Below the pieces are notes generated by a model. It was not told the DNA's origin, made no database searches, and saw nothing but the letters and a program-made list of their open reading frames with translations. Shown here in pieces: positions 11,980 through 56,962 of a DNA stretch of 64,000 bases. A program made the position numbers and the translations under genes. The stretch comes from Acutalibacteraceae bacterium (GTDB lineage: Bacteria > Bacillota > Clostridia > Oscillospirales > Acutalibacteraceae). Each line of letters starts with the position of its first letter. Positions within the stretch are counted from its first letter, which is position 1. The stretch is taken from the NCBI GenBank assembly GCA_045645885.1, contig JAZRJR010000073.1, positions 9,824 to 73,823 on the forward strand. Direction: 5' to 3'.

Positions 11980-15132
<3,153 letters not shown>

Positions 15133-18871: not shown

Positions 18872-18904
18872 ACAAAAGCCCCCACCTCATAAGAGATGGG
18901 GGCT
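18872..18904 (-). terminator. Intrinsic terminator of the giant gene.
   Basis: Minus strand reads AGCCCCCATCTC-TTAT-GAGGTGGGGGCT followed by TTTGTCGTG, about 40 nt after the stop codon at 18942-18944. Confidence 0.75.
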
Positions 18905-18941: not shown

Positions 18942-21900
18942 TTAACCGAAGATACCGAAAATCTTAGCGAAGAATTCCTTAATCTTCTTGATGATTCTCT
19001 GGAACCAGTTGAGGGTTTCTTCTGCCTCTTCTTCAGCTTCTTCGTGGTCTTCATCAGGACCTACAGTGTCATACCATACACCTGTCATCTGTTCCATAAC
19101 ACGTGCGATGCTACCATAGATACATGTTGAACCGTTTGCGATGTCGTTGAAGAGCTGCTTGAAGATTTCCTGAACAGTGATGATGTCGTTACGATAGAAC
19201 GCATCAACTGTTACTGCAAGACCGAGAGCCTGGAAGAGAGCTGCTACGATAATGTCGGGCATACCGTAAGATGCAGTTGTCTTGAAGAGCTGATCGATTG
19301 CATATCTTACAGACTGTTCTGAACCAGCCTTAAGATCGAATGCACCAACAATCCACTGTACAAGAGCTTCTCTGTTACCTGCATCACCGAACATATCAAG
19401 TAAGAATGTGAAGAGCCATGTAAGGGTGTTGCCCTTATCAGCCTGGATGTAGGTCTGAGTCTTCTTGTTGCCTTCAGCAATGTACTTGTCGTACTTGCCG
19501 TTTTCGTAATTCTTCACATAATCCTTAGGATCTGTGATAGCTGTCTTGAATGAACCAGCCTTTTCTGAACGAGCTGTTGCAACTTCCTTCTTACCTGTAC
19601 CTGTCTGAGCAAGTTCATAGAAGTCGATTTCAGGAATCTTGAAGTTGTACTTAGCGCCGAGGAGCTGGATGGGAATGTTGATGTTGTGGATAAGCTTAGC
19701 AACATCAAGACCTTCAAGAAGGTTACCAAGTCCGGGGATAATGCCTGAAACAGCATTGAGAATTCCGAATACGGGAGCTGCAAGGTTTCTTACGATGAGG
19801 TAGAAGCCTTCATTTGACAGGAAGTATCCAACGTTGGGAAGAACGCCGAGAAGTCTGTCAACGGGTTTAGCAAGGAGCCAATCTGCCCAGTTGCCGATCT
19901 TAGTAAGAACATAACCGAGGGTGTTTGCAGGATTTGACTTAACAGCATCTGCATACTGAGCCTGAGTCTTAACGTCCTTAGCTTCAAGACCGAATGCTTC
20001 AAGGAGAGGAATAATTGCGTAATCGTAACCGTTACCACCCTTGATATTAGCTACACATACGGGCATACCGTCGTCGCCCTTGATGATTGTACCGTTGTCG
20101 TTTCTGCTGGGAAGTACGCCGAGAGTCTTGCCTTCGCCGAGAAGGAGAAGTTCAAGTACGCAGTTAAGCGGGTTGAGGATTGATGCAAGGCCGTTTACAA
20201 AGCTTGTAACTGTGCCGTTTACACCCCAGTTGATGCCAGCTGCGCTTACGTCTGACCACTTCTTAGCAGCCTTAAGTCTCTTAGCGAATTCAGCGTTAGC
20301 ATTTGAATACTTAGCATATTCTGTTGCATAGCCCTGAACTGTAAGATCAAGACCGAGAGGTTTAACGTTACCCTTTTCGTCATAAACTACGAGGATTGCC
20401 TTGTCGCCTGTTGCAAGAGTTGAGATAGTACCAAGGATACCTTCAACGCTTTCACCGGCAAGGAGACCTGTGATTGTACCAACAAGGTTGGATACGAGAT
20501 CGTTGTTGAGCATACCGCCGAGGAGACCTGCGAGTGAGCCGCCGCCTACGCCTGCAGCCTTGAGAATGTCATTGATAAGGTTGTCAATGTTAGCTGCGAT
20601 TACGTCTGCGTTAGCTTCTGTAAGGAAGCCGTAGGTTCTGTAGTCGATACCCTGAAGAGTAATTGTTCTGTTCTGGATGGGAATGTATGAAACTTCGCCG
20701 CCGAGAAGAGTTGCAATTACGTCGAGGATCTTTGCGGGATCCTTGATGATGTCTTCGATGAGACCTTCGAAGTCGCCGAGGTCAAGACCGAGAGCACCCT
20801 TAAGTGCATTCCAGTTATCTTCTGTAAGGATTGTCTTAAGAAGAGCATAGAATGTGTATGCGTTGTCACCTGCAACGTTCTTATAACCTGTACCGTTATA
20901 GATGTCGTACTTAGTATCAAGAACTGAGCCCTTGAAGTCAATCTTGCCATCGCCGTTTGCATCTGCTGCTGCCATAGCTGCAAGCTCAGCAAAGTTGAGG
21001 TCAAGCTGGAGACCGAGAGGCTTGCCGTCAATTGCAATACCCTCAATAAGGTTACCGAGGAGATTTGCAAGAGCAGCACCGTCAATCTTGAGTGAAACAC
21101 CTGCGCTTACGCCGGGATGTTCCTGACCAAGGAATGTCTTGAGTACGGGATACTTGTCAGCATCTGCAGCACCGATGTTACCAAGGTCAATCTGGATAGC
21201 GATCGGGAAGATGGGATCTACTGCTGCGATGAGGTTATTTACGGGAGCGATGAGGTTTTCAACAAGAATACCTACGTTACCGTTAGCAATTGCATAGCAG
21301 AGGTTAGCAAGAATTCCGAGAACGCTGTTGATGGGCTGTTCAAGAATCTTATCAACCTGAGCGAAGAGCATGTCAAGGATAGGCTTGAGTGATGAGCCGT
21401 GGTTAGCAGCAACTGCTTCTTCATACTTAGCCTGAGTCATCGGTGTTGCACCGAGTGCTTCAAGAAGAGGAATGATAGCGTAGTTGTAGCCGTTACCGCC
21501 GCTTACCTTAACACCGTCAAGGATTGCGAGTGTATCACCTGTGAAGCCCTTTGTATCGAACTCAGCGTTAATCATACCGCCGTGGAGAAGGAGACCGAGG
21601 ATGCAATCAAGCGGGAGAAGCATATCACTGAGAAGTGCAATGAAGTCTGCCTTATCTGTGATGCCCCAAGCATATGCCTTAGCAACTCTTGTCTTTGTTC
21701 CGTCTTCGTTGGTCTTTTCTTCGCTGTGTGCCATCCATACTTCGTTCCATGTAATAGCACCATCTTTGTCCGTATCTTTAGCTTCTTCAATATAAGCTTT
21801 AAGCTTAGAACCGAACTTGGTGTTCTTGAATGCTGCGGGAGCAATGCTGAAGCTGTCACCGTTGTTCTTGAGATTTGAGAGCTGACCAACAAGGTCTTCA

Positions 21901-24900
21901 ATCATATTAAGAGTATCAACGGGAAGTCCTGCAAGAAGTTTAACTACTGCGCTTACAAGAGCATTTGCGATATCATCCTTCACGAAGAGCGGATATACGA
22001 TATCTGCAAGACCGCTTACCTTTGAACCATCTTCTGTCTTAACAAGGAGTTCAAGGAGCATCGGGATAAGTCCGTCAAGGCCTGCGAGTACATCGCCTAC
22101 CTGCTGGCTTACGCTTTCGTCCTTAATCTTATCCATTGCGGGAAGGTTATAAGGCTTGTATTCAACCATGTATTCGCTGAAGAGCATGAGGATGAGGTCG
22201 ATAAGCTCGCCATCCTTATCAGCAAGTGACTGGATGATGTTGTAAACCATATTGGGCTTGCCAGCTTCATCTTCAGCCTTGAGGCCGATAGCTTCGCAGA
22301 GGATGTTGAGGAAGTCGCTTGTAAGAACTGTTGAAAGAACATACATGATAGCGTTGCCGCTGTCTGTTGTCCATGTCTTAACGTTGTCGCCTTCTTGCTT
22401 CTTAACTGTAACAGCTGCGTTAGCAAGGTTAAGGAAGAAGTCTGCGGGAAGTGCATTTACAACTGCAATTACCTTGCCATCCTTATCCTTAATTTCGATA
22501 TTGGGAAGGAGACCGTTGATAAGGTCAATGAGAATCTTACCGTTGTCGCCTGCAATAGTGAAGATGTTTGTGATGTTGAGCTTCTTACCGTTCGGAAGTG
22601 TTACATTCACAAGGCTTTCGATAAGTGCATCAAGCTGATCCATTGTAATTACATTGTCAAGAGCATCAACAATGCTGAGTACGGGAGCAACGAGATTCTT
22701 GATTACAACTTCTACATCGTTGTTAGCGATGAAGTAGCTGAGGTTACCGACAACTGTGAGAATTGTTTCGAGCGGAGCCTTAGCAACAGCACCTACAAGG
22801 TCATCAAGGATGAAGTCAAGTACATTAGCGATTGCTTCGTTAGCAGTAGCTGCCTTCTTAGCTGCAGATACAACTGACTTGTTAGTGCCATCCTTACTTG
22901 TGAGTTCTTCAAGGCCGAGACCCTGGAAGAGGAGAGGAATAAGAGCAGTTTCGTAAGCGTTACCGCCTGCGAGACTTACGCTTGCCTTCTGTCCGTCATT
23001 TTCAAGTGTGAGTGTAAGATCGCCACCTGTGAGAAGGAATGCGAGAACAGGTTCGAGAGGCTTAAGGAGACTGAGAAGTGCGCCTACCCAAGCTTTCTTA
23101 CCCTTTACGCCTTCGAATACAGGCTTGTAAGTTACCTTAGTTGTAGTTGTACCGTCTTCGTTCTTGATTTCTTCAGTCTTGTCAACGTTAGCTGCTGCTA
23201 CATCTGCCCAGGTTACACCTACAGTTGCGTCAGAAGCTTTTGCCTTAGCCACATAAGCGATAAGGTCAGCGTTTTCTGTCTCAGCTGCGAATGCTACGGG
23301 TGAAAGGTCGATACCGATGATACCGCCGATTGTAGCAAGAAGTTCAGGATCAAGTCCCTTAAGGAGACCGATGAGAGCGCCTGTGATTGTGCCCATAAGA
23401 CTTTCTGTGAAGAGAAGGTCGTTAAGGAGATAATCAACCATACCTGCAAGAGTAGCATTATCTTCAATGCCTGCTGCAAGGTTAGCAAGGAATGTGCCCT
23501 CTTCAGCTGATTCACCAAGAAGGTCAATGATGATGGGAGCACCCTTAACAAGAACTGAGTCAAGGTTTTCAATAGCTGTTGATGCCTTGTCACCGTTTTC
23601 TACAGCGAGCTTTCCGAGATACTTGAAGATGTAATCATATTCTGTTACTTTGTTGTCACCTGTGAGAACGAGAACGAGAGTTGTGAGAACACCCTTGATG
23701 TTTTCATCACTTGCAAGAGCATTGTTGATGAGTTCAATAACAGCATCGGGAAGAGCAGCGCCGTCGAGGAGACCGCCTACAAGGTTCTTTATTGCCTTAC
23801 AGTTTTCATCTGTAAGAATTGTGTCAAGGAGCGTAATGAGTGCATTACCTGCATCACCGGTGATGTTAACAAGATCAGCAGTTGAAGCGTTCTTAACTGT
23901 ACCGATGTTGTAAACCTGCTTAGTACCGGTTGTGAGAATCTTGCCGTCTGTGTCTCTCTTAGCCATCTTAGCTGCAAGTTCGAGCCAGTTGAGGTCAAGC
24001 TTGATGCCAAGCTTGCTTCCGCCGATTTCGATACCTGCAAGGAGATCGCCGAGAAGATCTGCGAGGTCTGCGCCTGAAACGTTCACTGTGATACCTGCAG
24101 GTACACCTTCGTGTGACTTAGCGAGGTATGTTGTGAGAATGTTTTCAGCTGCAAGGTCGATTCTGATTGCAAGAGGAATTGCATCGTCTACTTCGTCAAT
24201 AAGAGTATTAACAGGAGCGAGAAGGTTTTCTGCAATCGTGTTGATACCGTCTGAACCGATGAAGTAGAAGAGGTTAGCAAGTCTTGAAAGGAGCTCGTTA
24301 AGCGGTGTCTTGAGGATTTCGTTAACAACGCCGATGAGTGCTTCAAGAACATACTGAAGTGATGAGCCTACTTCGATTGAGTATGCGTCATATTCCTTCT
24401 GAGACTTAAGGTTTGTTGCACCGAGAGCCTCAAGAAGCGGGATAATAGCGTAGTTGTAGCCTGCGCCACCCTGAATCTTGATTTCGTTGCCGTTATTGGT
24501 TTCGTCGTCAAGAGCTACAAGGTCGCCTTCTCTGAGGAGAAGCTGGAATACTACATCGAGAGGTCTGAGAAGGTCTACAAAGATGGGGATGAGATCGTTG
24601 AGAGATGTAACCTTCCAATCGAAGCCGTTAAGCTTTGTCTTCTGGTTGCCGTCTTCGCCGTTTACTGCCTTGAGTTCATATGTTTCGCCGTCTACCGTAA
24701 TTTCGGTTTCACCCTTAGCACGGTAAACAGTGATTGTCTGAGCCTCTGTAGCAGCTACATAGCCGTCTGTACCTTCTTCGCCTACTGCTTCCTTAGCAGG
24801 AATTGTGTAGGTGAATTCATACTGGGTATAAGCATCAAGGATTTCTGTCCATGTGCTACCAGCATCAAGGAAGTCCTTAACCTTTGAATCAGCAACAAGT

Positions 24901-27900
24901 ACGCCTTCTGCTGTCCAAAGTGTGGGATTGATTGTTGTAAGATCGATGTTTGTGAGTTCTCTTACATAACTGAGGATTGCATCAAGATCGAGGTTTTCGT
25001 TCTTGTCAAGACCTGCGAGTAAGGGAACAAGTGCGTTCATTACAAGGTTTACAAGGTCAGCGTCTGCGATGAGACCATTGATAAGACCGCCTAAATCCTT
25101 GCCTGCGAGCATGGGAACAACGAGTTTTACAATTGAATCAAGAACAAGAACTGCTTCGTTTGTATTAGCGTTGTTAAGAGCGCCTTCATCAGTCTTGAAG
25201 CTTTCGTAGGGAGCTACAACATTTTCATCAAGATCTGCCTGAGTGAGCTTCTTATAAACTACCTTGTACTCTGTGAAGAGCATAAGGATTACGTCAACAA
25301 GTTCGTTTTCCTTATCTGCAAGACCGATGATTGCTTCACCGATACCCTTGCTGAGGTCAAGACCAACCTTCTTGAGAAGTGTCTCGAAGAAGTTGTAATC
25401 AAGAACTGTTGTAAGGATATACATGAGAGCTTCACCGCAGTTGATGTTCCAATCAGTTACATCATCACCGATGTCTGTCTTAGTTTCGTCAGCAAATGTG
25501 CTGTCTTCAACAACATACTTAGCGAACTGCTCGAAGAAGTTAGCGGGAAGGAAGTCAATTACATGGAGAACCTTCCAGTAAACTGTTGACTTGGTTCCGT
25601 CTTCGTTTTCAATTTCAACAGGCCAGTACTGATTTTCCTTATCAGCGTCTACCTGTTCCTTAGTGAATTTGATGATGTCACCGTTTTCGTTCTTTTCGTA
25701 TACTCTGATACCACCGATGAGGTCGTTGATGATAGCTACGAGGCCTTCACCCTTATCACCGGCAATACCAATGATGTTGCTGAGTGTAAGAGGTCTGTTG
25801 CCGGGAAGCTTAACATTTACAAGACCTTCAAGGAGAGCGTCAATTTCGTCTCTTGTAATTACTGATTCAAGGAGTTCAAGAATAGCCATTACAGGAGCTA
25901 CAAGGTTCTGGATAAGAACGTCAATGTTGTTGTTTGCAATGAAGTAGCTGAGGTTACCTACAATTGTGAGAATTGAGGTGAGCGGAGCTTCACAGATTGC
26001 ATCAACAACGCCCTTCTTACCTTCTGTACCAAGGAGAGCATTAACAAGCTTTCTGAGAGCGTCTGTTGTATGTTCGCCTTCACTGATTCTTTCAACGTTT
26101 ACGCCGAGCTGTTCAGCGCCGAGACCGTTGAGGAGCTGAACGATTGCATTGTTGTAACCATTTGAACCCCAGATTGATACATCGCCGATTGCAAGAGTGA
26201 GGTTTTCACCTGCAAACAGGAAGTCAAGAACAGAATTGAGCGGTGAAACAATCGCGAGAAGAGTTTCAACGAATGTTTCTCTGTCTGCAACACCCCATGC
26301 GAATGCTGTCTTATTAGCGTCACTTACCTGTGCCCATGTTACAGCCTTCTTATCAGCTTCTGTTGCATTTTCAGCATATGCCTTAGCAACATAGTTCTGA
26401 AGAGCTACGTTACCTGAAGCCTTTGCAAATTCGTACGGCATAAGGTCAACAGGAATAATCTGAGCGATTGTGCCTGCAAGGTCTGCAGTTACAAAGCCTG
26501 CAAGGAGGTCTGTGAGCATTGTCATAAGACTGTTGAAGTTAGCTTCTGTGAATACATATTCCTTAAGGAGCCAATCAACGAGTGATGCAAGACCCTTATC
26601 TTTGTTGATTGCATTTGCAATCTTGTTGAATGTTGTAAGATCTGCTTCTGCCGTACCTTCAGCGGGTGAACCGATAAGCTTGATGATTGCAGCAGCTTCT
26701 CTGTCAATTATCTTGTCGAACTTGTCAACAGCAATTGAGAGTTCATCTGTTCTGTAATCATAGTTAAGATCACCAAGGTACTTGTAGATGTAAGCGGGAA
26801 GACTTGAAAGCTCGCCTTCACCTGTAAGGATGAGTACTACTGTACCGAGAACCTTCTTGATTGTTACATTGGTTGAAAGAACATTGTCAATAATGCCCTT
26901 AACCTCTGTGGGAAGGTTTGCATTCTTAAGGAGGCCTTCTACAAGATTCTTTATAGCCTTACAGTTATCTACTGTAAGAATTGTGTCAAGGAGCGCAATG
27001 AGTGTATCTGCGGGATCACCTGCAATGTTTACAAGATCTGCAGCTGTTGAATTCTTGAGGTGGTTAAGCGAACTGCCTTCACCTACTGAACCAACGGTGT
27101 AATTCTGTGATGTGCCTGTTGATTCAACTGAGTAAATCTTATTACCTGCAGCATCTGTTACATCATTGCCGTCTTTGTCCTTAAGAGCTTCACCCTTCTT
27201 AGCCATCTTAGCTGCGAGTTCGATGAAGTTAAGGTTGAGCTTGATGCCAAGCTTGTCACCATTTACTTCAATGCCTTCAAGGAGACCGCTGAGAAGTTCA
27301 GCAAGAGCTGTGCCTGAAACGTTTACGTGGATACCTGCATCGATACCGGGATGAGCCTTACCGAGATATGTGGTAAGGATTTCGTCTGCTGCTACGTCAA
27401 TAACGATAGCAAGCGGGAAGAGATCGTCTACTTCGGAAATGAGGGTATTAACAGGAGCAAGAAGGTTATCTGCTATTGTGTTGATACCGTCTGAACCGAT
27501 GAAGTAGAAGAGATTTGCGAGTCTTGAAAGAAGCTCGTTAAGCGGAGTAGCGAGGATTTCGTTAACTTCGCCGATAAGCACTTCAAGAACATACTTGAGT
27601 GATGAGCCTGTTTCAGCTACATATGCGTCATATTCTGCCTGAGTCTTAAGATCGGTTGCACCGAATGCTTCAAGGAGAGGAATAATTGCATAGTTGTAGC
27701 CGTAGCCACCCTTAATGCTGATCTGAGCGTTTGCAGGAGCTACATCGTCAGTATCAGGAAGAGCAACGATTGAGTTGCCGCTGAGAAGCACCTGGAATAC
27801 GATGTCAAGAGGCTTGAGAAGGTCACATACAACGGGGATGAGATCGTCGAGATCTGTGATGCCCCAATTGAAGTCACTTGCCATCTTGCTGCGGTGAGTT

Positions 27901-30900
27901 TCGTTACCTATAAGAGCAACTGCTACATCAGGTGTATCCTTGTTGTTGTCAACATCAGCCTTTGTAAGGTCATTCTTAGTTGAGTAGAACTTCTGTTCCT
28001 TACCGTCCTTATCTGTATATGTGTATTCGTAATCATATACAGGAGCGAGAGTGTAAGTCTTAGTATTTTCGCCTTCGCCAACGATGATTTCGGTAGCGTC
28101 AGCCTTATCAAATACTGTGATTGTCTGCTCAGCTACATAGCCTTCTGCACCTTCAGTTCCTACAGCAGGAATTGTGTAGGTGTATTCGTACTTAGTGTAC
28201 TTTTCAAGGATTGCTGTCCATGTCTTAGCATCGCCAAGGAACTTTTCAACCTTGGAATCACTGCTGAGCATATCTGTCCAGAGTGTGGGAGCAATTGTTG
28301 TGAGCTTAATATTTGTGAGCTGTTCTACGTATGCAAGGATTGCATCGAGGTCGAGACTTTCGTTCTTGTCAAGACCTGCAAGTACGGGAACAAGCGCATT
28401 CATAATAAGGTTTGCAAGATCAGCATCTGCAATGAGACCGTTTACAAGACCGCCGAGTGTCTTGCCGTCTGCGATAAGACCGATTACGGTGTTAACGAGA
28501 GGATCAAGAACATTGATTGCAGTTGTAACGTCTTCGTTTGTGAGCTGATGTGCGTCAGGACTGAAGCCTGCGTATGCTTCTGTGAGGTCAGCCTTTGTGA
28601 TTGTGGGCTGTTCAAGCTTGCTGTAACGAACTGTGTAGTCGTTAAGGAGCATGATGATTACGTCAACAAGTTCATTTTCCTTGTCAGCCATTGAGAGAAC
28701 GGTTTCACCGATACCCTGGCTGAGATCAAGGCCTACCTTCTTGAGGATTGTCTCGAAGAAGTCGTAGTCAAGAACTGTTGAAAGGATGTACATAAGTGCA
28801 TCGCCTGTGTTGATTGTCCAGCTGTCAACGTCAGCACCTACAGTTGTAACTGCTTCGTCTTCATATTCGCTGTTTTCAACAACATACTTAGCAAACTGTT
28901 CGAAGAAGTTTTCGGGAAGAACGTTGATTACATGGAGAACTCTCCAGTATACCTTTTCAGGTACCCTCTGGCCGTCCTTATCGAGAACGAATGTTACATT
29001 ACCGTCTTTGTCCTTAGTTGTCTTATAAACTACATTACCGTCTTCATCTGTTACGATTACTTCGTGGTAGTTGTGGTTCTTAACAAGCTGTTCAACCTTG
29101 TATTCCTTAATCTTTCCGTCTTTGTCCTTTTCGTATACTCTGAGGCCGCCGAGGAGGTCGTTGATGATTGCAACGAGACCTTCGCCGCTATCACCAGCAA
29201 TATTGATGATATTGCTGATTGTAAGAGCCTTGCCACCGGGAAGCTTAACATTGAGGAGACCTGCAAGAAGAGCATCGAGCTGATCTCTTGTAATTACTGA
29301 CTCAAGGAGTTCAAGAATTGCAAGTACTGGAGCAATAAGATTCTGGATAAGTGAATCAAGGTTACCGTTTGCAATGAAGTAGCTGAGGTTACCTACAATC
29401 TTAAGAATTGAGGTGAGCGGAGCAGTACAGATTGCATCAACGATGCCATTCTTACCTTTTGTGCCGAGAAGAGCATTAACAAGCTTTCTGAGAGCGTCTG
29501 TTGTATGTTCGCCTTCACCGATTGTTTCAACAGTTACATCAAGCTGCTTAGCACCGAGACCGTTGAGGAGCTGAACGATTGCATTGTTGTAACCGTCTGC
29601 ACCCCAGAGTGCAACACCATTGATGTTGAAGCTGAGATTATTACCTGCGAAGAGGAAGTCAAGGATCGGGTTAAGAGGCTTGAGGAGATCAAGAAGAGCA
29701 TTAATGAAGCTGTTCTGATCGTTTACACCCCAAGTGAATTCACCGTAGTTATAAGTCCATTCGCCGAATTCTTCTGTTGCATAAGCTGCACGAACGTCAG
29801 CCCATGTAACTGCTGCCTTTTCAGCATCTGTTGCACCTTCCTTGATTGCCTTTGCAACATAAGCGACAAGCTTATCATTCTTTGTTGCTTTAGCGAATGC
29901 TACAGGCATAAGGTCGATGGGAAGAAGCTGAGCAATTGTGCCTGCAAGGTCAGCTGTGATAGCGCCTGCAAGAAGGTTTGTGAGCATTTCCATAAGAGCT
30001 GTGAAGTTGTCAGCTGTGAATGCAAATTCACCAAGGAGCCAGTTCACAAGGTCTGTAAGAGTTGCCTTTCTGCCTTCTGCATCATCTGTGCCTTCTTCGA
30101 TCTTATTCATTGCTGCTGTCATCTTACCAAGGAAGCTGTCAGCTTCAGCGGTTGCACCGAGCATAGTGATAACGCCTACTGCTTCACGAGCAATCATTGA
30201 ATCGAACTTAGTGATTGCATCTGAAAGTTCAGCTTCTTTGTAATTGAAGTCGAGCTTACCGAGGAACTTGTAGATGTAAGCGAAGGGATATACATCACTT
30301 GAAAGGTTACCGTTACCTGTAAGAATGAGTACTACAGCACCGAGAACCTGCTTGATAGTATTTTCGCTTGAAAGTGCCTTTTCAATAAGATCTGCAATGT
30401 CTTTATTTTCCTTCATGAAATCTTCAGGAAGAAGTCCCATTACAAGAGCCTTTATAGCCTCACAGTTCTTTTCTGAGAGGATTGTGTCAAGGAGCGCAAT
30501 AAGTGTATCTGCTGAGTCTCCTGAGATATTTACGAGGTCAGCAATGTTTTCATCAGCAATTGTACCGAGGGTATAAACCTGCTTAGTCGGAATTCTTTCC
30601 GTACCTGCCATCTTAGCTGCAAGCTCAATCCAGTCAAGGTCAAGGCTGAGACCAAGAGCTTCACCGTTAACCTTGATACCAACGAGTGCATCATTGATGA
30701 ACTTGGTAAGAGCTGAACCTGAAACATTCACGGTAATGCCTTCAGGTACACCTTCGTGTTCTTTACCAAGGTAGAGACCGAGGATTTCGTCAGCTGCAAG
30801 GTCAATTCTGATTGCAAGCGGGAAGAGGTCGTCTACTTCTGCGATGAGAGTATTAACAGGAGCGAGCAGGTTAGCTGCGATTGTGTTGATACCATCTGAA

Positions 30901-45900: not shown

Positions 45901-48900
45901 ATGATTGATTTGAGATCTGTACCGTTAATTGATACGCCTTCAAGAAGCTCAACAATGATCTGCTTGAATGTGTAAGCTGAACCTGCACCGCCTGAAAGAT
46001 CGAGAGCTTCGTCGGGTTCTGTAAGTGAAGCAACTGCTGCCTCGAGACCTGACTGACCGCCTTCGTTTTCTTCGATCATATTGAGAGCTACAGCTGCAGC
46101 TGCAGCGCCAACAGTTGACTGATCTGCGGGATCAGTGCTGTCTGATGTTTCGCCTGCCTTGTCGTTCATATCCTTGATGAGGCCTCTGAGAAGATCCTTA
46201 ACAATACCCATAAGGTCGATATCATAGATGCTTTCAAGCATATCAGTGATTGTTGTTACAGGTACTATAAGGTTATTGAGGATAGCATCAATACCGTCAC
46301 TTTCAACAAAGTGAGCAAGGTAGGGAATAATTGTAAGGAGTGTGTTTACAGGTCTTGCGCAGAGTGAGTCTACGAGTGCAAAGATTGCATCTGTAAGAGT
46401 TGTGAGCATAATCTTTGCGCCATCATAATCGATTGAGCCGTTGTCGTTATAAACAGCAGCCTTGTAAGCTGTATAGTCAACAAGTGTTGCTTCGGTTGCA
46501 CCGCCGCCAAGGAAGTAATTACCTTCGTTTACAATAGGTGTGCCGAGATTATCTGACCAAGTACCGTCAGCGTTCTTGTTTGCACGGAGTGCGGGAATGC
46601 CGAGAGCCTTGATGAGAGGAAGAATGAAGCCTTCATAACCTGCTGCGCCGTTAATTGTAATCTTATCATAAATTACAAGTGAACCTTCAGCGAAGAGAGC
46701 TGCGAAAATGGGAGCGAGAGGCTTGATGCAATTCCAGAGAAGATCTACGAAACCGTCACGAGTATTAAGACCCCATGTAGCGTTGATCTTAACAGCAGTC
46801 TTCTGCTTAGCAGGTTTAACATTCTCCATTACAGCTTCAACGAGGTGCTTAACTTCTTCGTTTTCTTCTGTTTCAGGATTGTCAGGAGTTGCAATCCATT
46901 CAGTCTTGCCTGCTTCCTCGAGCCAGAGTTCTGTGTCTACGAGCTCGCCTGCTGCGTTCTTAACTGAATATGTGTACTTATATTCTGTAACCTTCTTTGT
47001 GGTTGTTTCACCGGTTGCCTCGTCAGTTACCTGCTTGTCAACCTCGCGGTCAGTCTGCTTCTGAACCATGTCAGCAATTACAGCAATTTCTGCTGTATTT
47101 TTGTCATTGTCGTGGTCGAGTGTTGTAAGACCCTTTTCGTCAGCATAATATGTTGCAGTAACTTTTCCGTCAGCATCTTTAACAACATACTGATACTTAG
47201 AGTTAGCCTTTACAACATCTGACCAATTAAGAGCCTTAAGAGCCTTTTCCTGTTCATCGGTAAGAGTTTCTGCAGCAGGATCAAAGGTGATAGATTTATC
47301 TTCTACTGCCTTTACAATTGTTTCTCTGAGGTTATCGATATTCATATAGAATGAATACGGTGTAAGGTCATAGCCTGAACCCTTGAGAACAGTAAGTACA
47401 ATATTTACAATCTGAGCTGAATCTTCACCGCCAAGGAGACCGATAAGCATATCCATAATGCTGTTGAGACCCTTGTCATCGTAGAGATATGTTTCAAATA
47501 CCTTATCAACGATCAGCTGAAGAGTAATTGTGTCGTCAGTTGTGATACCGAAGAGCTTGTTGAAAGCACCGCTTTCGTCTTCTGCTGTGTCAGGATCATC
47601 TTCCTTAGCAAGCATATCCTTAAGAAGTGAAAGGTTGAGAATCTTACCTACGAGTGCATCGAGGTTGTCGATTGTTGCTGAAGTCTTAACACGTGAGATT
47701 TCAGTTACCTTTTCTTCGCCAGCACCGAGATTCTTGTTGTGGTCAAGAACTTCTTCGTGTGTATCATAGCCTGCATCTTCATAGAATTCGAAGTGGTTTT
47801 CTGATGTAATTTCAATTAATGTTACGGGCTTAATTGTGCCACGTGTATCACCTGTAAGAAGAGCAACAATTAAGTCAACAAGTGCATTCGGATTTTTGAA
47901 TACATTTGTGATGATTTCGTCAAGAAGTTCTGCTTCGGTTGCTGAGTTGTCGTCTGTAAGGTCGTAACCGAGAAGTGAACCGATAACTTCTTTGAGTGTT
48001 GTGTTTGTAAAGATGAAGTCAAGAAGGAACATAAGAACTTCAGCCTTACTTACATATACAGTACCTGTTCCTGATACATATACATAATCAGCATATTTTC
48101 TCTTAATATAATCGTTTGCTTCATCTTCATGTTCGCTTACGGGATCACCGAGAGCTGCAATTGACTTAAGGAAGTTCTTAACTGCAGTTGCTCTAAGTGT
48201 TCTTGCATCAGCCTTGAGTGATTCAATCTGATCCTTATTTGCAACTGCATTTTCCTTGGTGAGATCAGCAGCCATCTTGTTCTTAGCCTTAGCCTCAAGC
48301 TCCTTATCCTTGTCAAGGAAGAGAACTATACCGTACATGCCTTCATACGGATCATTTCCGCCTAAAACGCCGGAAAGGTCAAATTCAAGGTTTGCAATAA
48401 GAGCAAGAAGTGAATCAGTAAGTGAATATACATTATCTGAAACAATCTGATCTCCGTTTTCATCATACTTAACGAATTCGTTGAGAGCATTCTGGAAGTT
48501 CTCCCAGTCGTCTGTTGCAAGAGCGTCAATAAGACCTGATGCAATGTTGTTGATATCAAGGTTAATGATATCTGTAAGACGGTTTGTTAATGTTGTTACA
48601 GGAATAAGAATGTTTGTAACGAGTGTTGTAATACCATCTGCATAGAGGAAATATGCAAGAGTGGGAAGTGCATTTGCAAGTGTTTCAACGGGATACTTAC
48701 AAAGAATTTCAACAAAGTAGAATACATAGTTTACAATGTTCTTTACTGTGTATCCAACACCTGCAGGACTCATCTTGCCGTCTACATAAACTCTGGAGAG
48801 ATACTCTTCTTTTGTCATAAGGTGCTCGATCTTCTGACCTTCAGCATCCTTTGTTTCAAGAGTATTGAGCTTGTCACCGAGCTGAGCGATGATTGAGTCA

Positions 48901-51900
48901 AGACCGAATGCACGGAGAAGAGGAAGGAGGTAATCGTCATAACCGAAGCCGCCTTCGATATTAAGAGTGTGTCCGAAGAGACTGAGTGCGTCACCGGCAA
49001 AGAGTGTTGAGAATACGATTGCGAAGGGTTCAAGAACACTCCAGAGTGTGTTAACCATAGCAACCTTCTTAGCTGTGAATTCATCTTTTCTTACAGGTTT
49101 GCCGTCTGCATCCAAGATGTACTCAGCTTCGTCAATACCCCATGCCCATTTGCGGTCTCCGAGTGTTTCAGAGTATACAGGAGTAAGGGTATAGTAAACA
49201 TCTTTACCCTGAGCATCTTTTTGGTCGCTCTTAAGAACTTTAAGCTGCTGATAGTCACCATAATATGTAACTACTTCACCTTCAGCATTTGTGTATGTAT
49301 ATTCATACTTGCCTGCATCATTTGTCTTCTGCGGATAAGCAGTAGCATATACTTCAGTTGCATAAACGATTTCCTTAACTTCGTTACCGCTTGCATCGAG
49401 CTTAGGTTCACCGTTTTCGTCAAGAACAGTTACATACTTATCTTCTGTAGCGTCTCTGAGTGTATATGTTACAGCATTTGCGCCTTCACCGACAACATAA
49501 GCCTTAAGACCTGCCTCTTCAAGCCATACGGTCTTGGTTTCTGTTACTTCGCCGGCATCGTCTGTAATATCATACTCATACTTATATGCGGTTATATATT
49601 CACCGTTTTCGTCTTTAAGCTCTTCGTCGCTTGTTGTCTGAATCTGAACAGCCGCCTTCTTGGGTGTGCCGTCTTGATTCTTTACAAGCTCGCCGTTCTT
49701 GTCAAATTCATAAAGCACATAGCTGTGATTGTTATAAATCTGAACGAATGTAAGCTCTACTTCGTCGGCTACGGTGATTACTCCGTCACCGTTTATATCA
49801 TCCTTCTGGTCATTGAAGTCCATATCAAGATAATACTTATCGTAATCGCCTGAAGCACCGGGAACGATCTTGCCGTTTTCTTTATAGAAGCCGTATGTGA
49901 AGTATTCGTAGAGAGGAGACGGTTTACTCTTGTCGGGCTTTCCGTTTTCATCAAGATTGTAAATAAATGCATCGAAGGTCATATCGAAGCCAGCAGCCTT
50001 GAGAGCCTGCTGAAGTGTACGTGATGTGCTTGTGCTACCACCTGCACCGAAGAGACCTACAATAAGATTTGCAATCCATGTGAATGAGTCATCCTTAAGG
50101 GCATAGTCCATAGCAAGGCCCTTAACAAGACCCCAGAGACCGTCATCGCCCTTAATACCGTTTACAAGGTCACCGCCGATAATACCGTTATCGGTAAGAA
50201 TTGAGAGAATTTCAGGAAGAGCTTCTCTTACTACATAGTCAAGGTTTTCAATTGTTTCATTTACATCTTCTTCAGTGAAGAGAATTTCATTATTATTTTC
50301 TTTGTCAATAACTGCAAAGGTACCGTCATTCTGTACAATCGCATTTTCGTTATTTGCATAACCGCTGTGTACGATACCGTAATCAGTCATAGCCTGATCC
50401 TGAATAGCCTCTGTGAGCTTATTATCAAGATTATTGATGAAATCATAGTAGTAGAGATTACCTTCATCAGGATTATAGTCGCTGAAAATGTCGATAATAA
50501 TACCTGTAAGGATATCTACCTTCATGCCGCCTTCAGCATCTGCTGCTTCGCCTGTAAGGTTGTTTATAACACCGTTAACGATATTGTGAACACGCTGTCT
50601 GTATTCAAGTTCTTCGTTTTCATCATTTGCATTTGTAGCGTTGAGAATTACATTACCCAATACAGTAGCAATCTGTCTGTTAAGAACCGTTCTTACGAGT
50701 GTGATTAAGAATTTACCTGCTGAACCGTTGAAGCTTGTCCATTTCTTGTTAGCATTAACCGCACCGCTGTCGTCAGTACCTACTGCACGGTATGTGATTT
50801 CTTTTGTGATATCCGATGATTCAGCTGCGATTTTTGCAAAGTCAAGCATCTGCACATTGAATCCGCTGTTATCTTCGCCAATATTTGCAAGAACATTGTT
50901 GAGAAGATTTTCAAGGTCGAGGAAGCTTTCAATAAGTGCATTAAGATCGAGAGTAATAAGTCTTGAAAGAACGGGATCTACGATGTCAAGAAGCTTAGTT
51001 ACGGGAGCAATAAGGTTTTCAACCGCAATCATAAAGTTTGAACGCTTCTTATCATCATCGGGATCATTATAGATATAGAGAGCATATGCAAGATTAGGAA
51101 TCTTCTCGAAGAGAACTGTAAGAGGTGAATCAACAAAGCCCTTAATGCCCTTGGTTTCATCACCAACAAGAAGCTCTCTGATAGCATCAAGAAGAGGACG
51201 AAGCGGTGAATTGTATGTCTGAGCAAACTTCTTGCCGCCTTTTGCTGTAAGTGCGTCTACATCTACATTTGTATCCTTTGTCTTGTCGTTGTTGTATACA
51301 TAGTTGTCGAACTGGTTCTGGCTCATGCAAGCACTGTTAAGACCAAGTGCTTCGAGAATTGCAACGATTGATCTTGAATAACCGTTATTACCCTGGAGCT
51401 CGAGTTCATCAAGAAGGAGAATATCCTGACCTGAAAGGAGGAATGAAAGAATGGGGTTAAGGGGTGAAAGAAGGTCACAGAGATATTCAACAAAATTGTT
51501 AATTCTTTCTGAGAAATCTTCAGCTTCTACGAACCACTCAAAGCCGGCTTCATAACCGATGTCAGCCCAAGTCATTTCGTCCCTGATATATTCGTATACC
51601 TGTGTATCGCTGTATGCATTTGCATTGTATCCGGAAATACTGCCTGTACGATGAATATAATGCTGTCTTTCAAGCCACTGTGCAAGCTGTGTGTTGCCTG
51701 ATGATGATACACTTGAAGAAGTGGTAAATGCCTGATAGAAACCTGCAGGAGTAAGGTCGATTCCGATATCTGCAAGTGTGTTTGCGATCTTATTTACAAT
51801 ACCATTGGGATCACCGAGGAGACCACCAAGGAGACCCTGATCGTAGTTGAGCTTGTATTCTGTTTCCTTTACGGGGTTGCCTTCATTATCGAGAACAACA

Positions 51901-54900
51901 TCACCGTTTTCGTCAAGCTTGTCAACTTCTGATACTGTTGTTGAAACAACAAACTGACCTTCACGTACCTGGCCTTCACCGTTGCCGGCATCAACATAGT
52001 ATACCACGCCGTCTACTATGATCTGTGTGCTTGTTGTTGTAGCAGGAATCTTTTCACCTGTTGTTTCGTCAGTAGCATAGATAAGTTCTTTTGTACCAAC
52101 AAGAAGGTCTACAAGGAATTCGATAAGTGCATTACTGAATACAAATTCAGAAAGAATTTCATCGAGACCTAAGGCTGTGCCTGCATTTGCAGCTGCCTTT
52201 GCTTTTGCGATTACAGTTTCAGCACCAAGAGTCTTAAGAAGATCTACGTTTAAAATTGTGTCTTCAAGTGCAACAAGAAGTGTTGTTGCAAGTGAGCTGA
52301 TAAGCTTATCTACATTTGCAACAGCAAGGTCTGCCTTTGCAATAAGATCTGCGTCTGTGTATGTCTTGTTTGCAAGCTCGGTAGCACTCACCTCGCTGTT
52401 TGCTTCACGAAGTGTTTCTTCAAGATATTTACCAATCTGGAATGTTGACTTGAGGTTACCGGCTAAATCTTTTGTAACATAAGACTTCCAACTGTCACCT
52501 TCCCAATAACCGAATCTCTGAGCGTCATCAGCTACGTCATAGTAGTCTCTGAAATTCATTGTGTAGTCATTAAGAAGACAAATAAGAATAGCTACAATTG
52601 TGTCAGCCTGACCGTCAACAATACCTGCAATCATATCGAAGGTGTCGCCGAGAAGACCGCCGAGAAGCGGCTCAAGAACATAAAGAGTACCGTCGTCCAT
52701 AAGCCATCTGAGAAGTGTAAGAAGAACGTCACCGGAGTCAGTGTCGATATGATAGTTTGTCTTGGGTGAAAGCGGCTGAATTGTAGGAAGGGTTGTTCTT
52801 ACGACCTTACCGCAGGCCATAAGTCGGTTAGTCGGCAGGATAAGAGGACACGAACCCGTGTTTCCATCCCATTCGAGCCAGTCCAGGAAGCCGTCGCCGG
52901 CAAGACCGTATAACGTTCCTGTAAGCAAGCCGGTCTGAACATATTTTTCGTTATGTTTTATGTATTCGATGACGTTACCGTCTTCATCCGTCTTTGCCAG
53001 ATATTTACTCTTGGTTGAATCGGTTGGAGATTCACTTGTTACTTTTGCACCAAGAAGCATATTAAGAAGACCTGCGCTGCCCTGCTTTGTTACATCAGGT
53101 GTAAGACCAAGATCTCCGATAAGATTTCTGAGAGCAAGATCCCAAAGCTGAATATCTGTAAGTGAAGCACTAACAAGGCTGAGTATAACTTTAAGATTCA
53201 TATCCGTAATCTTGGGAAGAATCTGATCATATTCAAGAGCAGCAACAAGATTGGGAAGAAGCTCAAGAATTGTTTCAACAGGCTTGTTGAAAAGTCTCAT
53301 ATTGATGAAGTTGATAATGGGTTCAAGAAGCATCTGCCAAAGCTCAACACCATAGCCGTCTTCAGCTACGATACCTGCGCACTTGCCGTCAAGAGCATGG
53401 ATATCTGTATCACACGCTGCAGAAACTTCACCACCGGAATAATATCCGTAACCGTCTTTGTTGTTGGGATCGGCAAGAGCCTGAATACCAAGAAGACGAT
53501 AAAGCGGCATAAATACATTGTCATAAAGCGACTGGCCGGTTGAGTCAATTGTAATATCAAAGTCCATAAGTGCAACTTCGACCTTCTTAGCATTACCTGT
53601 TACAAGTGAGGCAAGAACAGGAGCAAGACCTGATGCTGCAGCGGCCATTGCATGATAAAGGTCATCAGCATTTTCTGTATGCCATGCTCTGTCCTGATCA
53701 AAGTATACGGGCTCGCCGTTTTCATAATAGATAGGCTCTGTACCCTTCCATACACCGTCAGGAATACCTTGATATGTTGCGCCGTCTCTGGGGTTGGTCC
53801 AATTATCGTTCCAATATGATCTGAGTTCCTTACCACTACCATAAGACGAACTATCATGAGGTGCTGTCTGAAGAGCATAAAGAACTTCAGTATAGTCATA
53901 GCGTGAACCCATAAGGTCACCATTGAACATCTTATACCAAATTACATCCGTGTCATCACAGATGTTACCAGCAGATGTACCATTCTTTGATTTGCCCCAG
54001 TTTGCATAGAACATATGAGGCATGGTAGGAAGCGCTCTACGGAGAGTTTTGGGAAGATCCTGGTAGTATTTCGGAAGAATAACCGCTACGCCACCTGCAA
54101 GGCTATAAACAGCAGGACCTACCGCACCTTCAAGAACTGTGAAAATAGTATTAGGAAGTAAACCGCCATAGAGGATGTTGGCGATAAGACTGATAAGGAA
54201 TTCGCGAAGATTCTTTACATCGTCACCCTTCTTGAAGGTTTCCTTTGCATGCTTTACACCATCTTCATCAGTGAACGCAGGAATTTCATAATCTCTCTTC
54301 CACTGTCCAAGCATATTAGTCTTGACAGGAACAATTTCTAATTTGGTTGTGGGGTGTATCTCAAGATCTGCCTCATCAAGATAGAACTCATCTGTTCCGT
54401 TCTTGTATGTATAAGCAAACTTACCGTAAGCATCAGTCTTCTGCTTCATTGTAAGATTTTTGAGAAGTATACCAAGGTCCTCTGAAACGAGAATTCTGTC
54501 TAGATCTTCTACAGCTAAGTCCATAAGGTCAGCAATTTCACCTCTGGAAATGGAGCTGTTCTGTGCAAGCTCAACCTCATTAACCAGTTCCATGATGTCT
54601 TTATAATTAAGCTTACCTACACAAGTAGCCCACATATATGCATTATAAGCAGGTGCCTTGCCTTTGTGGAGAATATACTGAAGCATTGTTTCATCAAGAA
54701 CATTATAGGGGTCTCCGCCATATTCTCCCTTGTGTGCAGCCTGAGGAGCCTGTGCTGTATTCTCATAAGCGAGATTCTTCAGGTTATTGAAATATGTCTT
54801 GAAAGAATTTGCGTCACTATATGCTCTGGTAGCACTTTCGTAGGTTTCAAGGAATTCATCTTCTGTCATATCACCCTTCTTTGAGTTGGGTTCATACGCA

Positions 54901-56813: not shown

Positions 56814-56933
56814 AAAATTTTCCTCCTTATATGAAAGAATTTTATATAACATTAATAGATTTCCCCATGATAAACACCCTTACACCCTGAAAAAGGGTGC
56901 AAAATGCCCATAGAGACACCTATAACTGTACGT

Positions 56934-56962
56934 AGTATACCATTTTTGGACAAGTATTTCAA
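56934..56962 (-). promoter_or_regulatory. Strong sigma-A-type promoter TTGAAA, 17-nt spacer, (TGg)TATACT, dedicated to the giant gene.
   Basis: The reverse complement reads TTGAAATACTTGTCCAAAAATGGTATACT. It predicts a 5' UTR of about 110 nt containing a CACCCT-TTTTC-AGGGTG hairpin and the AAGGAGG RBS. Confidence 0.55.

Follow-up and report, generated by a model that had tools for sequence, protein, structure and literature searches.

Giant repetitive proteins exported to the cell surface are a known kind in bacteria, and several described systems stand close to the gene discussed here. This gene fills 37.9 kb on the minus strand of a 64,000-nucleotide stretch of DNA (the window below, to which all positions refer) from Acutalibacteraceae bacterium (Bacillota, Clostridia, Oscillospirales; GenBank assembly GCA_045645885.1, contig JAZRJR010000073.1, positions 9,824 to 73,823 of the forward strand). 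Its product, the giant protein, carries 19 tandem modules of an undescribed family and is probably a long stalk or fibril of the cell surface.

What is known of the closest systems? Fibrillar proteins on the surface of Gram-positive bacteria, such as the sortase-anchored MSCRAMM and Bap-type proteins, combine a signal peptide, an N-terminal functional region, stalk repeats and a C-terminal anchor. Ebh/Ebp of Staphylococcus is a surface protein of about 1.1 MDa that has helical FIVAR-GA repeats and is anchored by a membrane-spanning segment at its C-terminus. The E. coli DD-carboxypeptidases PBP5 and PBP6 are exported and use a C-terminal amphipathic helix as membrane anchor. An in-plane amphipathic membrane anchor is also described for pestivirus Erns (PMC4536213). 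Finally, giant genes of gut Clostridia and of megaplasmids code for proteins of about 7,000 (megaplasmid) to more than 10,000 amino acids, which are predicted to be extracellular and carry RCC1, Listeria-Bacteroides repeat, YG-repeat, dockerin, S-layer or MBG domains with sortase signals (10.1101/2023.11.21.568195; PMC12934698).

The giant protein resembles the fibrillar surface proteins in its Sec signal, its variable N-terminal region and its tandem array that sets the length (r = 0.94); it is likewise acidic, calcium-associated by prediction and fast-evolving, with a conserved C-terminal anchoring end. However, its unit is an alpha/beta module of 500-800 amino acids and not an Ig-like beta domain of about 100, and it lacks an LPXTG/sortase signal and any wall-binding or recognisable adhesive domain. 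With Ebh it shares a megadalton size, a mostly alpha-helical repeat array and, as proposed, export followed by C-terminal membrane attachment without sortase. It differs from Ebh in having no FIVAR, GA or DUF1542 match and a module about five times larger that includes beta subdomains, and the proposed anchor of its family is mostly an in-plane amphipathic helix rather than a transmembrane segment. The comparison with PBP5/PBP6 and Erns concerns only the C-terminal amphipathic helix, which has about 20 residues, a hydrophobic moment of 0.76 and basic and aromatic residues. Here it takes the family-specific form LNWFQR.IKKIKEFF.KIF.IF after an acidic stretch, has no sequence relationship to those anchors, and is only proposed to bind membranes. 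The giants of gut Clostridia share with the giant protein the habitat, the class, the size and the predicted extracellular location, but none of their domains or sortase signals is found in it.

A giant gene with 19 module copies

A single unbroken open reading frame (ORF) on the minus strand, 18942..56852, runs for 12,636 codons (37.9 kb) without a stop and encloses all 19 repeats. Where does the protein begin? An AGGAGG sequence precedes the ATG at 56813, and the N-termini of relatives align from exactly the residue that this ATG encodes, residue 14 of the ORF. Thus the true product has about 12,623 amino acids, with a mass of 1.37 MDa, an isoelectric point (pI) of 4.3, a net charge of about -977 and 0.3% Cys. 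An earlier sequence-only reading of this DNA had given the range of the repeats as 19950-53560; that range does hold them, but the gene reaches well beyond it, over at least 18942..56813.

18942..56813, minus strand: giant gene, start codon ATG at 56813-56811 (M14 of the listed ORF)
56822..56827, minus strand: Shine-Dalgarno sequence AGGAGG, 8 nt 5' of the ATG at 56813, read in the sequence

The repeats had been noticed through a short anchor motif, said to occur 19 times on the reverse strand. Anchors were first located with a regular expression, and a profile built from 13 clear copies was then searched against the giant protein. It recovers 19 strong copies (E = 5e-13 to 7e-90) and a few weak partial matches, so that a consistent module can be recovered and its 19 cores aligned. 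The expression G..[GAL][YF]...[ILVMF][ILVAMF][PAQ][ILMFV][ILFMAY] finds exactly the same 19 copies, as compared with a mean of 0.044 and a maximum of 2 in 500 residue shuffles. Each of the 19 centres given in the sequence-only reading falls 2-17 nt from the aligned anchor column, and the spacing from anchor to anchor is 1,461-2,439 nt, in agreement with the 1.47-2.44 kb that it gave. Its description of the anchor as invariant was too strong. Identity in 19/19 copies is limited to one G, the Y and a P that comes about 50 residues downstream; the complete form GGxGYNYAIIPLLEAxG is confined to copies of the A-type defined below, and the anchor of copy 1 (TGQSLYDNVFMPLYRLLG) is degenerate and partial. 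At the DNA level the anchor is visible as a 57-nt repeat in 16 copies of 60-88% identity. The cores are listed below, with residues numbered in the protein; the higher coordinate of each anchor is its nucleotide in the anchor column of the 19-core alignment.

53220..53786, minus strand: module 1 core, residues 1023-1211, partial and degenerate; anchor 53487-53537
50955..51872, minus strand: module 2 core, residues 1661-1966; anchor 51342-51392
48546..49352, minus strand: module 3 core, residues 2501-2769; anchor 48903-48953
46212..47078, minus strand: module 4 core, residues 3259-3547; anchor 46599-46649
44232..45032, minus strand: module 5 core, residues 3941-4207; anchor 44517-44567
41994..42899, minus strand: module 6 core, residues 4652-4953; anchor 42264-42314
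39816..40694, minus strand: module 7 core, residues 5387-5679; anchor 40098-40148
37749..38657, minus strand: module 8 core, residues 6066-6368; anchor 38025-38075
36111..36737, minus strand: module 9 core, residues 6706-6914; anchor 36327-36377
34374..35195, minus strand: module 10 core, A-type, residues 7220-7493; anchor 34653-34703; canonical EF-hand loop DENADGKVTWAE
32736..33545, minus strand: module 11 core, B-type, residues 7770-8039; anchor 33030-33080
30789..31595, minus strand: module 12 core, A-type, residues 8420-8688; anchor 31065-31115; canonical EF-hand loop DLNEDGEISWAE
29289..30053, minus strand: module 13 core, B-type, residues 8934-9188; anchor 29553-29603
27384..28208, minus strand: module 14 core, A-type, residues 9549-9823; anchor 27660-27710; copy used for the structure model
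25854..26582, minus strand: module 15 core, B-type, residues 10091-10333; anchor 26118-26168
24147..24908, minus strand: module 16 core, A-type, residues 10649-10902; anchor 24420-24470
22644..23336, minus strand: module 17 core, B-type, residues 11173-11403; anchor 22917-22967
21177..21944, minus strand: module 18 core, A-type, residues 11637-11892; anchor 21450-21500; canonical EF-hand loop DTDKDGAITWNE
19722..20483, minus strand: module 19 core, residues 12124-12377; anchor 19989-20039
19722..36110, minus strand: super-repeat of five A-B double modules, residues 6915-12377, period about 1,000-1,150 amino acids (3.2-3.6 kb)

Architecture of the module

How far does the homology extend beyond the anchor? 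In an alignment of the 18 complete inter-core units it spans the entire module, 493-811 amino acids in each, and the order of conserved blocks reported earlier is reproduced. The first block is a helical, Leu-rich N-half of about 300 amino acids (ADALMYLL.TVL, LL.NY.V.Y, AI..LD.LI, LV..LL, N.LM..LV.LL.G). It is followed by IDL.P..F and TWA[DE]V, then by a beta-rich insert whose length varies from 0 to about 200 residues (YEYTYT…), then by F.WGI…F…L.DLL.PL..VL..LL.G with a short hairpin. The last block begins with the anchor, G(G).GY..AIIPLLEALG, and goes on with P…LL..L.NL.YFI..DG…..NL.APV..L. Within each module, a helical domain of about 155 amino acids includes the anchor as its best-conserved part. 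That the module arose from a smaller helical unit through internal duplication was considered and rejected, the probability in an hhalign comparison of N-half with C-half being 0.3%.

The TWA[DE]V block closes an EF-hand-type loop. A canonical EF-hand loop has 12 residues, D-x-[DN]-x-[DN]-G-x-[ILV]-x-x-x-[DE], and such loops normally occur in paired helix-loop-helix units. Here the canonical form (D-x-N/D-x-D-G-x-[IV]-[ST]-W-x-E) is present in 3/18 modules, namely modules 10, 12 and 18, where the loops DENADGKVTWAE, DLNEDGEISWAE and DTDKDGAITWNE coincide exactly with the block; it is degenerate elsewhere, the remaining modules retaining just the W and the acidic position 12. At residues 2352 and 11964 there are two more loops of canonical appearance. 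The residues retained make the TWA[DE]V block look like an EF-hand that has decayed.

The last ten modules show a higher order. Among their linkers, even-numbered ones match even-numbered ones and odd-numbered ones match odd-numbered ones, at 29-59% amino acid identity, and the DNA of these modules repeats every 3.2-3.6 kb at 65-90% identity. The resulting five A-B double modules indicate that the array grew, at least in part, as units of two modules were duplicated. Compared with these ten, the nine modules nearer the N-terminus are older and show more divergence. No near-identical DNA repeats were found among the modules, whose DNA identities are 60-90%, and TRF reports no tandem repeat, as expected since the units exceed 500 nt at 60-90% identity. 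The lack of near-identical copies together with the TRF result argues that the array is old and not an assembly artefact.

Predicted structure

The core of module 14 was modelled with AlphaFold2 from an alignment of the 19 in-protein paralogues. The model (mean predicted local distance difference test score, pLDDT, 74; predicted template modelling score, pTM, 0.49) consists of a beta subdomain and a helical bundle. Residues 15-120 form a confident beta-hairpin-rich subdomain, with pLDDT 82-90 in the first 70 residues, and residues 130-271 a seven-helix region with pLDDT of about 75-89. The anchor corresponds to the passage from a beta-hairpin (157-175) through the GG.GY turn into a helix (180-191). 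In the model, therefore, the anchor appears as the most constrained turn-plus-helix of a helical bundle. A model of a full module shows the N-half as helices with a small beta element, at low confidence.

It had been suggested that a Gly turn plus a helix repeats as a unit of its own and stacks into a fibre or solenoid. The anchor is not such a free-standing unit but part of the helical domain of about 155 amino acids. Nor is the module a usual solenoid repeat, because its 493-811 amino acids with at least three subdomains are far above the usual 20-60. A strict solenoid is thus unlikely, while modules that build an elongated fibre are plausible.

Database comparisons

Does the module belong to any described family? 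Profile scans covered the whole giant protein in three chunks, its termini, 5 shorter relatives and 42 diverse family cores (E <= 1). Pfam-A, NCBIfam and PHROGs gave no family match, and the only signals were sub-threshold EF-hand matches, which in Pfam are due to the EF-hand-type loops at TWA[DE]V, and scattered single-member noise. A match of the module profile to an annotated Pfam or InterPro domain would have placed the module in a known family; no Pfam match was found. Against PDB sequences, the 19-copy profile (E >= 0.0006) and the 42-sequence family profile (E >= 0.0035) found nothing but designed helical bundles, and these matches are compositional. The N-terminal and C-terminal domains had no PDB sequence match beyond designed bundles or noise. 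With Foldseek, the core model found nothing at E <= 0.001 in PDB (best E = 0.76) or BFVD (best E = 0.17), and the full-module model nothing at E <= 0.001 in PDB, its confidence being too low for this to count. The claim that the module matches no described family thus holds through Pfam, NCBIfam, PHROGs, PDB sequences and Foldseek searches of PDB and BFVD.

The cohesin and dockerin domains of cellulosome and amylosome scaffoldins, and RTX, Rhs/YD, FIVAR and GA repeats, likewise had no Pfam match in the giant protein. No LPXTG-type motif lies near the C-terminus, the only match being IPATG at residue 6141, and none of the NCBIfam sorting-signal models matches the C-terminal tail. No description of the module family or of its tail was found in the literature. 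The family is undescribed, and its C-terminal anchoring signal is probably undescribed too.

Distribution and evolution of the family

An exhaustive HMMER search with the 19-copy profile against 1.84 billion cluster representatives, the search for relatives that the sequence-only reading had proposed, gave 640 related proteins at E <= 1e-3, of which 350 reach E <= 1e-30. The best 150 of the 640 were used for all counts of length, copies, signals and tails. These representatives have 1,009-7,691 amino acids and 2-14 matched stretches, in total 852 module copies with a median spacing of 453 amino acids. Length correlates with copy number (r = 0.94), at about 600 amino acids per copy. In the consensus of the 852 copies, G, G, Y and P are conserved at 82-90%. 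The giant protein, with 19 copies and 12.6 thousand amino acids, is the largest member seen; many database members end at contig ends. Source records name the family members only 'hypothetical protein'.

In a word-index protein search, only short fragments or chimeras of the family appeared, while the exhaustive search found hundreds of members of several thousand residues; giant proteins seem effectively invisible to the word index. Among the chimeras, P0002 is fused to phosphoglucomutase, and P0181 and P0197 carry unrelated Pfam domains. Some ENA fragments of the family look like chimeric gene calls.

Genomes were scanned, one for each GTDB species, with the pattern GY[ND][YF]AIIPL taken from 7 A-type copies. 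This gave 56 loci, all in metagenome-assembled genomes (MAGs) labelled Acutalibacteraceae, Oscillospiraceae, Ruminococcaceae or 'Clostridia', from guts or rumen of human, Hadza, cattle, goat, sheep, deer and buffalo. At nearly all of them the ORF exceeds the 10-kb flank, with more than 5,200 amino acids visible, and in about 50 independent MAGs collinear orthologous ORFs of that size have matching module positions. Two giant family genes (L030 and L036) lie on different contigs of the same MAG, RGIG4739, which indicates that paralogous copies per genome exist.

Synteny with the neighbours in the window is found only in the closest relatives, L004, L008 and L010, which assigns the window to Acutalibacteraceae, and the neighbours of related loci include no partner gene conserved across the family. 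The giant protein is 50-62% identical to those of L004, L008, L010 and L001, with dN/dS of about 0.33, an approximate value since dS is near saturation. In L004, L008 and L010 the adjacent operon is 70-80% identical, and the neighbours overall 70-97%. The giant protein is under purifying selection yet fast-evolving.

The two ends of the protein

Outside the modules, four regions can be distinguished.

56724..56813, minus strand: Sec-type signal peptide MKVGKKALSCLLAIIMIVSSCSVCFSVLGA, cleavage site inferred
53787..56723, minus strand: N-terminal region, about 980 amino acids, no recognisable domain, conserved only in the closest relatives
19014..19721, minus strand: C-terminal domain, about 236 amino acids with an acidic stretch at its end, kept at the extreme C-terminus of relatives
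18945..19013, minus strand: amphipathic aromatic/basic helix LNWFQRIIKKIKEFFAKIFGIFG, then the stop codon; proposed as an in-plane membrane anchor

The signal peptide is the only segment of the giant protein with transmembrane-grade hydrophobicity (KD19 = 2.54), and an N-terminal signal (MK..KK.LSVLLA.IMI.SS.SVCF…) is common to 113/150 representatives. Processing as a lipoprotein is not claimed: the giant protein has a lipobox-like VSSC, but this is absent from the family consensus.

Conservation rises from the N- to the C-terminus. The N-terminal region matches only 2/150 representatives and is proposed to be the distal, variable end of the protein. The C-terminal 259 amino acids are matched by ten representatives at E 1e-35 to 1e-111 and by one more at E = 0.002, and the word-index search added fifteen C-terminal fragments that match the C-terminal domain; identity to L004 is 71% in this domain versus about 50% overall. 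The tail is kept by most of the family: an acidic stretch with an aromatic/basic helix ends 111/150 representatives and 54/56 related loci. The giant protein ends with …DEDHEEAEEEAEETLNWFQRIIKKIKEFFAKIFGIFG and a stop, and the consensus of family tails is PNGFI.FFQKII.FFKKII.WFK.LF. The 18-residue hydrophobic moment of the tail, 0.76, is the highest in the giant protein (99th percentile 0.52).

What might such a tail do? About 11 representatives (P0028, P0037, P0052, P0070, P0071, P0081, P0086, P0088, P0095, P0098 and P0120) have a true transmembrane helix with KKKK and an acidic tail in place of the amphipathic helix. A transmembrane helix followed by KKKK is a classical stop-transfer anchor. 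Since the one substitutes for the other, the amphipathic helix would do the same anchoring job. This replacement looks like a natural 'swap experiment' pointing to membrane anchoring, as far as sequence comparison can tell.

Expression signals and neighbouring genes

Two further signals frame the giant gene.

56934..56962, minus strand: promoter-like site, TTGAAA, 17 nt and a TG-extended TATACT, 10/12 matches, consensus match only
18877..18904, minus strand: intrinsic-terminator-like hairpin with T-run, 12 pairs (8 G-C), 38 nt past the stop of the giant gene

Terminator-like hairpins are also found 3' of the gene upstream. With its own promoter-like site, the hairpins behind the upstream gene and the hairpin with T-run after its stop, the giant gene looks monocistronic. 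Another terminator-like hairpin of 11 pairs lies at 56878-56904 (minus strand), within the 5' leader, after the promoter-like site and before the Shine-Dalgarno sequence; it could act in attenuation or in RNA stability. Rfam gave no match in the window or in this leader. On the plus strand, antisense ORFs of 150-231 amino acids lie over the giant gene at 21399-21878, 22395-22877, 29505-30200 and 31944-32438, with further ones at 35914-36366, 40212-40883 and 49221-49853. Rather than genes, they are probably a side effect of the codon composition of the giant gene.

Downstream of the giant gene are genes for a sulfite-reductase-type protein, a FecCD-type ABC transporter, GH2 and GH30 glycosidases, an aldolase, a DHDPS-family protein and a GlcNAc 2-epimerase. 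Genes of phages or mobile elements are absent among its neighbours in the window, and the context is that of an ordinary chromosome. The GH2 beta-galactosidase (11995-15132, plus strand) is 94-97% identical to its copies in L008, L010 and L004, while identity is only 70-80% for the adjacent genes of the ABC transporter and the sulfite-reductase-like protein, and about 50-62% for the giant gene. Either an unusually strong constraint or a recent exchange of the GH2 gene could explain this.

Upstream, an ORF at 57210-63986 (minus strand) of more than 2,258 amino acids leaves the window. It looks exported, has a Listeria-Bacteroides repeat (Flg_new, E = 6.5e-14) and many repeated Cys-rich CxxC segments, and is not a member of the module family. 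Its C-terminus (…CGCACHRDNIWGAIFRFFHKIIKMLTGEFKCCSDPSHLYG) has an amphipathic segment like the tail of the giant family, unconfirmed and below the threshold of the tail hidden Markov model (HMM). It is closest to the Cys-flanked variants P0043, P0079 and P0084 (…DCDCHS..FIKFFFKIANFFRRLFGM..CECGDAHW). Should the resemblance hold, the tail would be a surface-anchoring signal that is shared.

What kind of protein is it?

The reading that we favour, with moderate confidence, is that of an exported, membrane-tethered and very acidic surface protein, whose modules most likely form a long stalk or fibril and whose role might be adhesive. Its pI of 4.3, its 0.3% Cys and its EF-hand-type calcium loops would be typical of extracellular proteins. 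A monocistronic gene would give a 1.37-MDa acidic protein exported through Sec, and the C-terminal amphipathic helix would hold it at the outer leaflet of the cytoplasmic membrane. The 19 alpha/beta modules, partly calcium-binding by prediction, would extend through and beyond the wall, so forming a stalk or fibril that may display the variable N-terminal region away from the cell. In this plan each module would comprise a helical N-half, an EF-hand-derived TWA[DE]V block, a variable beta-hairpin subdomain and the helical bundle of about 155 amino acids, in which the most constrained element would be the beta-hairpin, the G-x-x-G-Y turn and the helix (A)IIPLLEA(L)G.

Several points weigh against such a stalk. 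In about 55 species the distances of the last 8-11 modules from the C-terminus are closely similar (about 410, 900, 1,400, 1,900 amino acids etc), which is more like a fixed multi-domain machine than a stalk of variable length. The Pfam and NCBIfam scans found no SLH, CWB2, dockerin, LPXTG, adhesin, enzyme or cell-wall-binding element in the giant protein; with no wall-binding or sortase element found, surface retention would depend solely on the amphipathic tail. At the N-terminus, either cleavage of the signal peptide or lipidation could occur. In addition, the AlphaFold2 model of a full 643-amino-acid module (pLDDT 58.7, pTM 0.43) is too low in confidence for the geometry between modules.

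The constant number and positions of C-terminal modules in about 55 species might speak for a structural part of a lineage-specific envelope layer, or for a cell-cell or matrix scaffold (an S-layer-like sheet, a sheath or a tether), where the modules would make lateral contacts in fixed stoichiometry. The wide occurrence of the family in Oscillospirales MAGs of many species agrees with it, and the acidity and the predicted calcium-binding loops could bridge lattices by calcium. However, family members have from 2 to 19 copies, the scans showed neither SLH or CWB2 nor any other wall-binding module, and the highly variable N-terminal region fits an exposed tip and not a lattice element, so we regard a scaffold as rather unlikely. 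Could the protein instead be a secreted membrane-active effector or toxin, with helical hairpins and a modulin-like tail that insert into membranes of competitors or host? Every module does have helices rich in L, I, V and P (KD19 1.6-2.1), but they carry D/E and lie within the predicted soluble helical bundle, in a protein with a net charge of about -977. The tail is very amphipathic and has a weak, sub-threshold likeness to phenol-soluble modulin, but the variants with a transmembrane helix plus KKKK indicate self-anchoring. The fast evolution of the protein would suit an effector, whereas a mass of 1.37 MDa in 19 ordered, positionally conserved modules is atypical of toxins; no toxin, immunity, Rhs/YD, RTX or polymorphic-toxin domain appeared in the scans, nor any immunity-like neighbour. 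An effector seems to us improbable.

There is a more basic question, whether the gene is what it appears to be. The source is probably a metagenome-type assembly, in which repeats may collapse or expand, and word-index searches give only fragments of the family; a mis-assembly, a pseudogene, a chance ORF or a structural protein of a phage or mobile element (tape measure, fibre) might thus be suspected. Yet the DNA of the modules is 60-90% identical with no near-identical repeats and no tandem repeat by TRF, and the 37.9-kb ORF is intact, with a Shine-Dalgarno sequence, a promoter-like site and a terminator-like hairpin. Collinear orthologues of more than 5,200 amino acids with matching module positions in about 50 independent MAGs, a dN/dS of about 0.33, the absence of PHROG and BFVD matches and neighbours that are not phage genes all point the same way. 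An artefact, a pseudogene or a phage origin is essentially excluded.

Implications

The stalk or fibril reading can be carried further only tentatively, to a new fold family that builds megadalton, mostly alpha-helical appendages of uncultured gut and rumen Oscillospirales with an unrecognised C-terminal anchoring signal. That signal, the acidic stretch with the LNWFQR.IKKIKEFF.KIF.IF helix, is possibly shared with other surface proteins of the lineage.

Why does the family matter? One gene occupies 38 kb, and the family comprises hundreds of clusters at 50% identity without any annotation, so current domain libraries and PDB miss a large protein architecture of the gut microbiome. The module profile, the end signals (signal peptide and amphipathic tail) and the range of copy numbers make the family searchable and testable. 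The guts of humans and ruminants harbour abundant Acutalibacteraceae, Oscillospiraceae and Ruminococcaceae, which are largely uncultured, and how these bacteria present themselves to the host, to mucus, to fibre particles and to phages is poorly known. The tail may define a non-sortase anchoring route for proteins on the surface of Gram-positive bacteria. If the appendages of a new fold are real, they would represent a new type of Gram-positive surface organelle together with a new anchoring mechanism.

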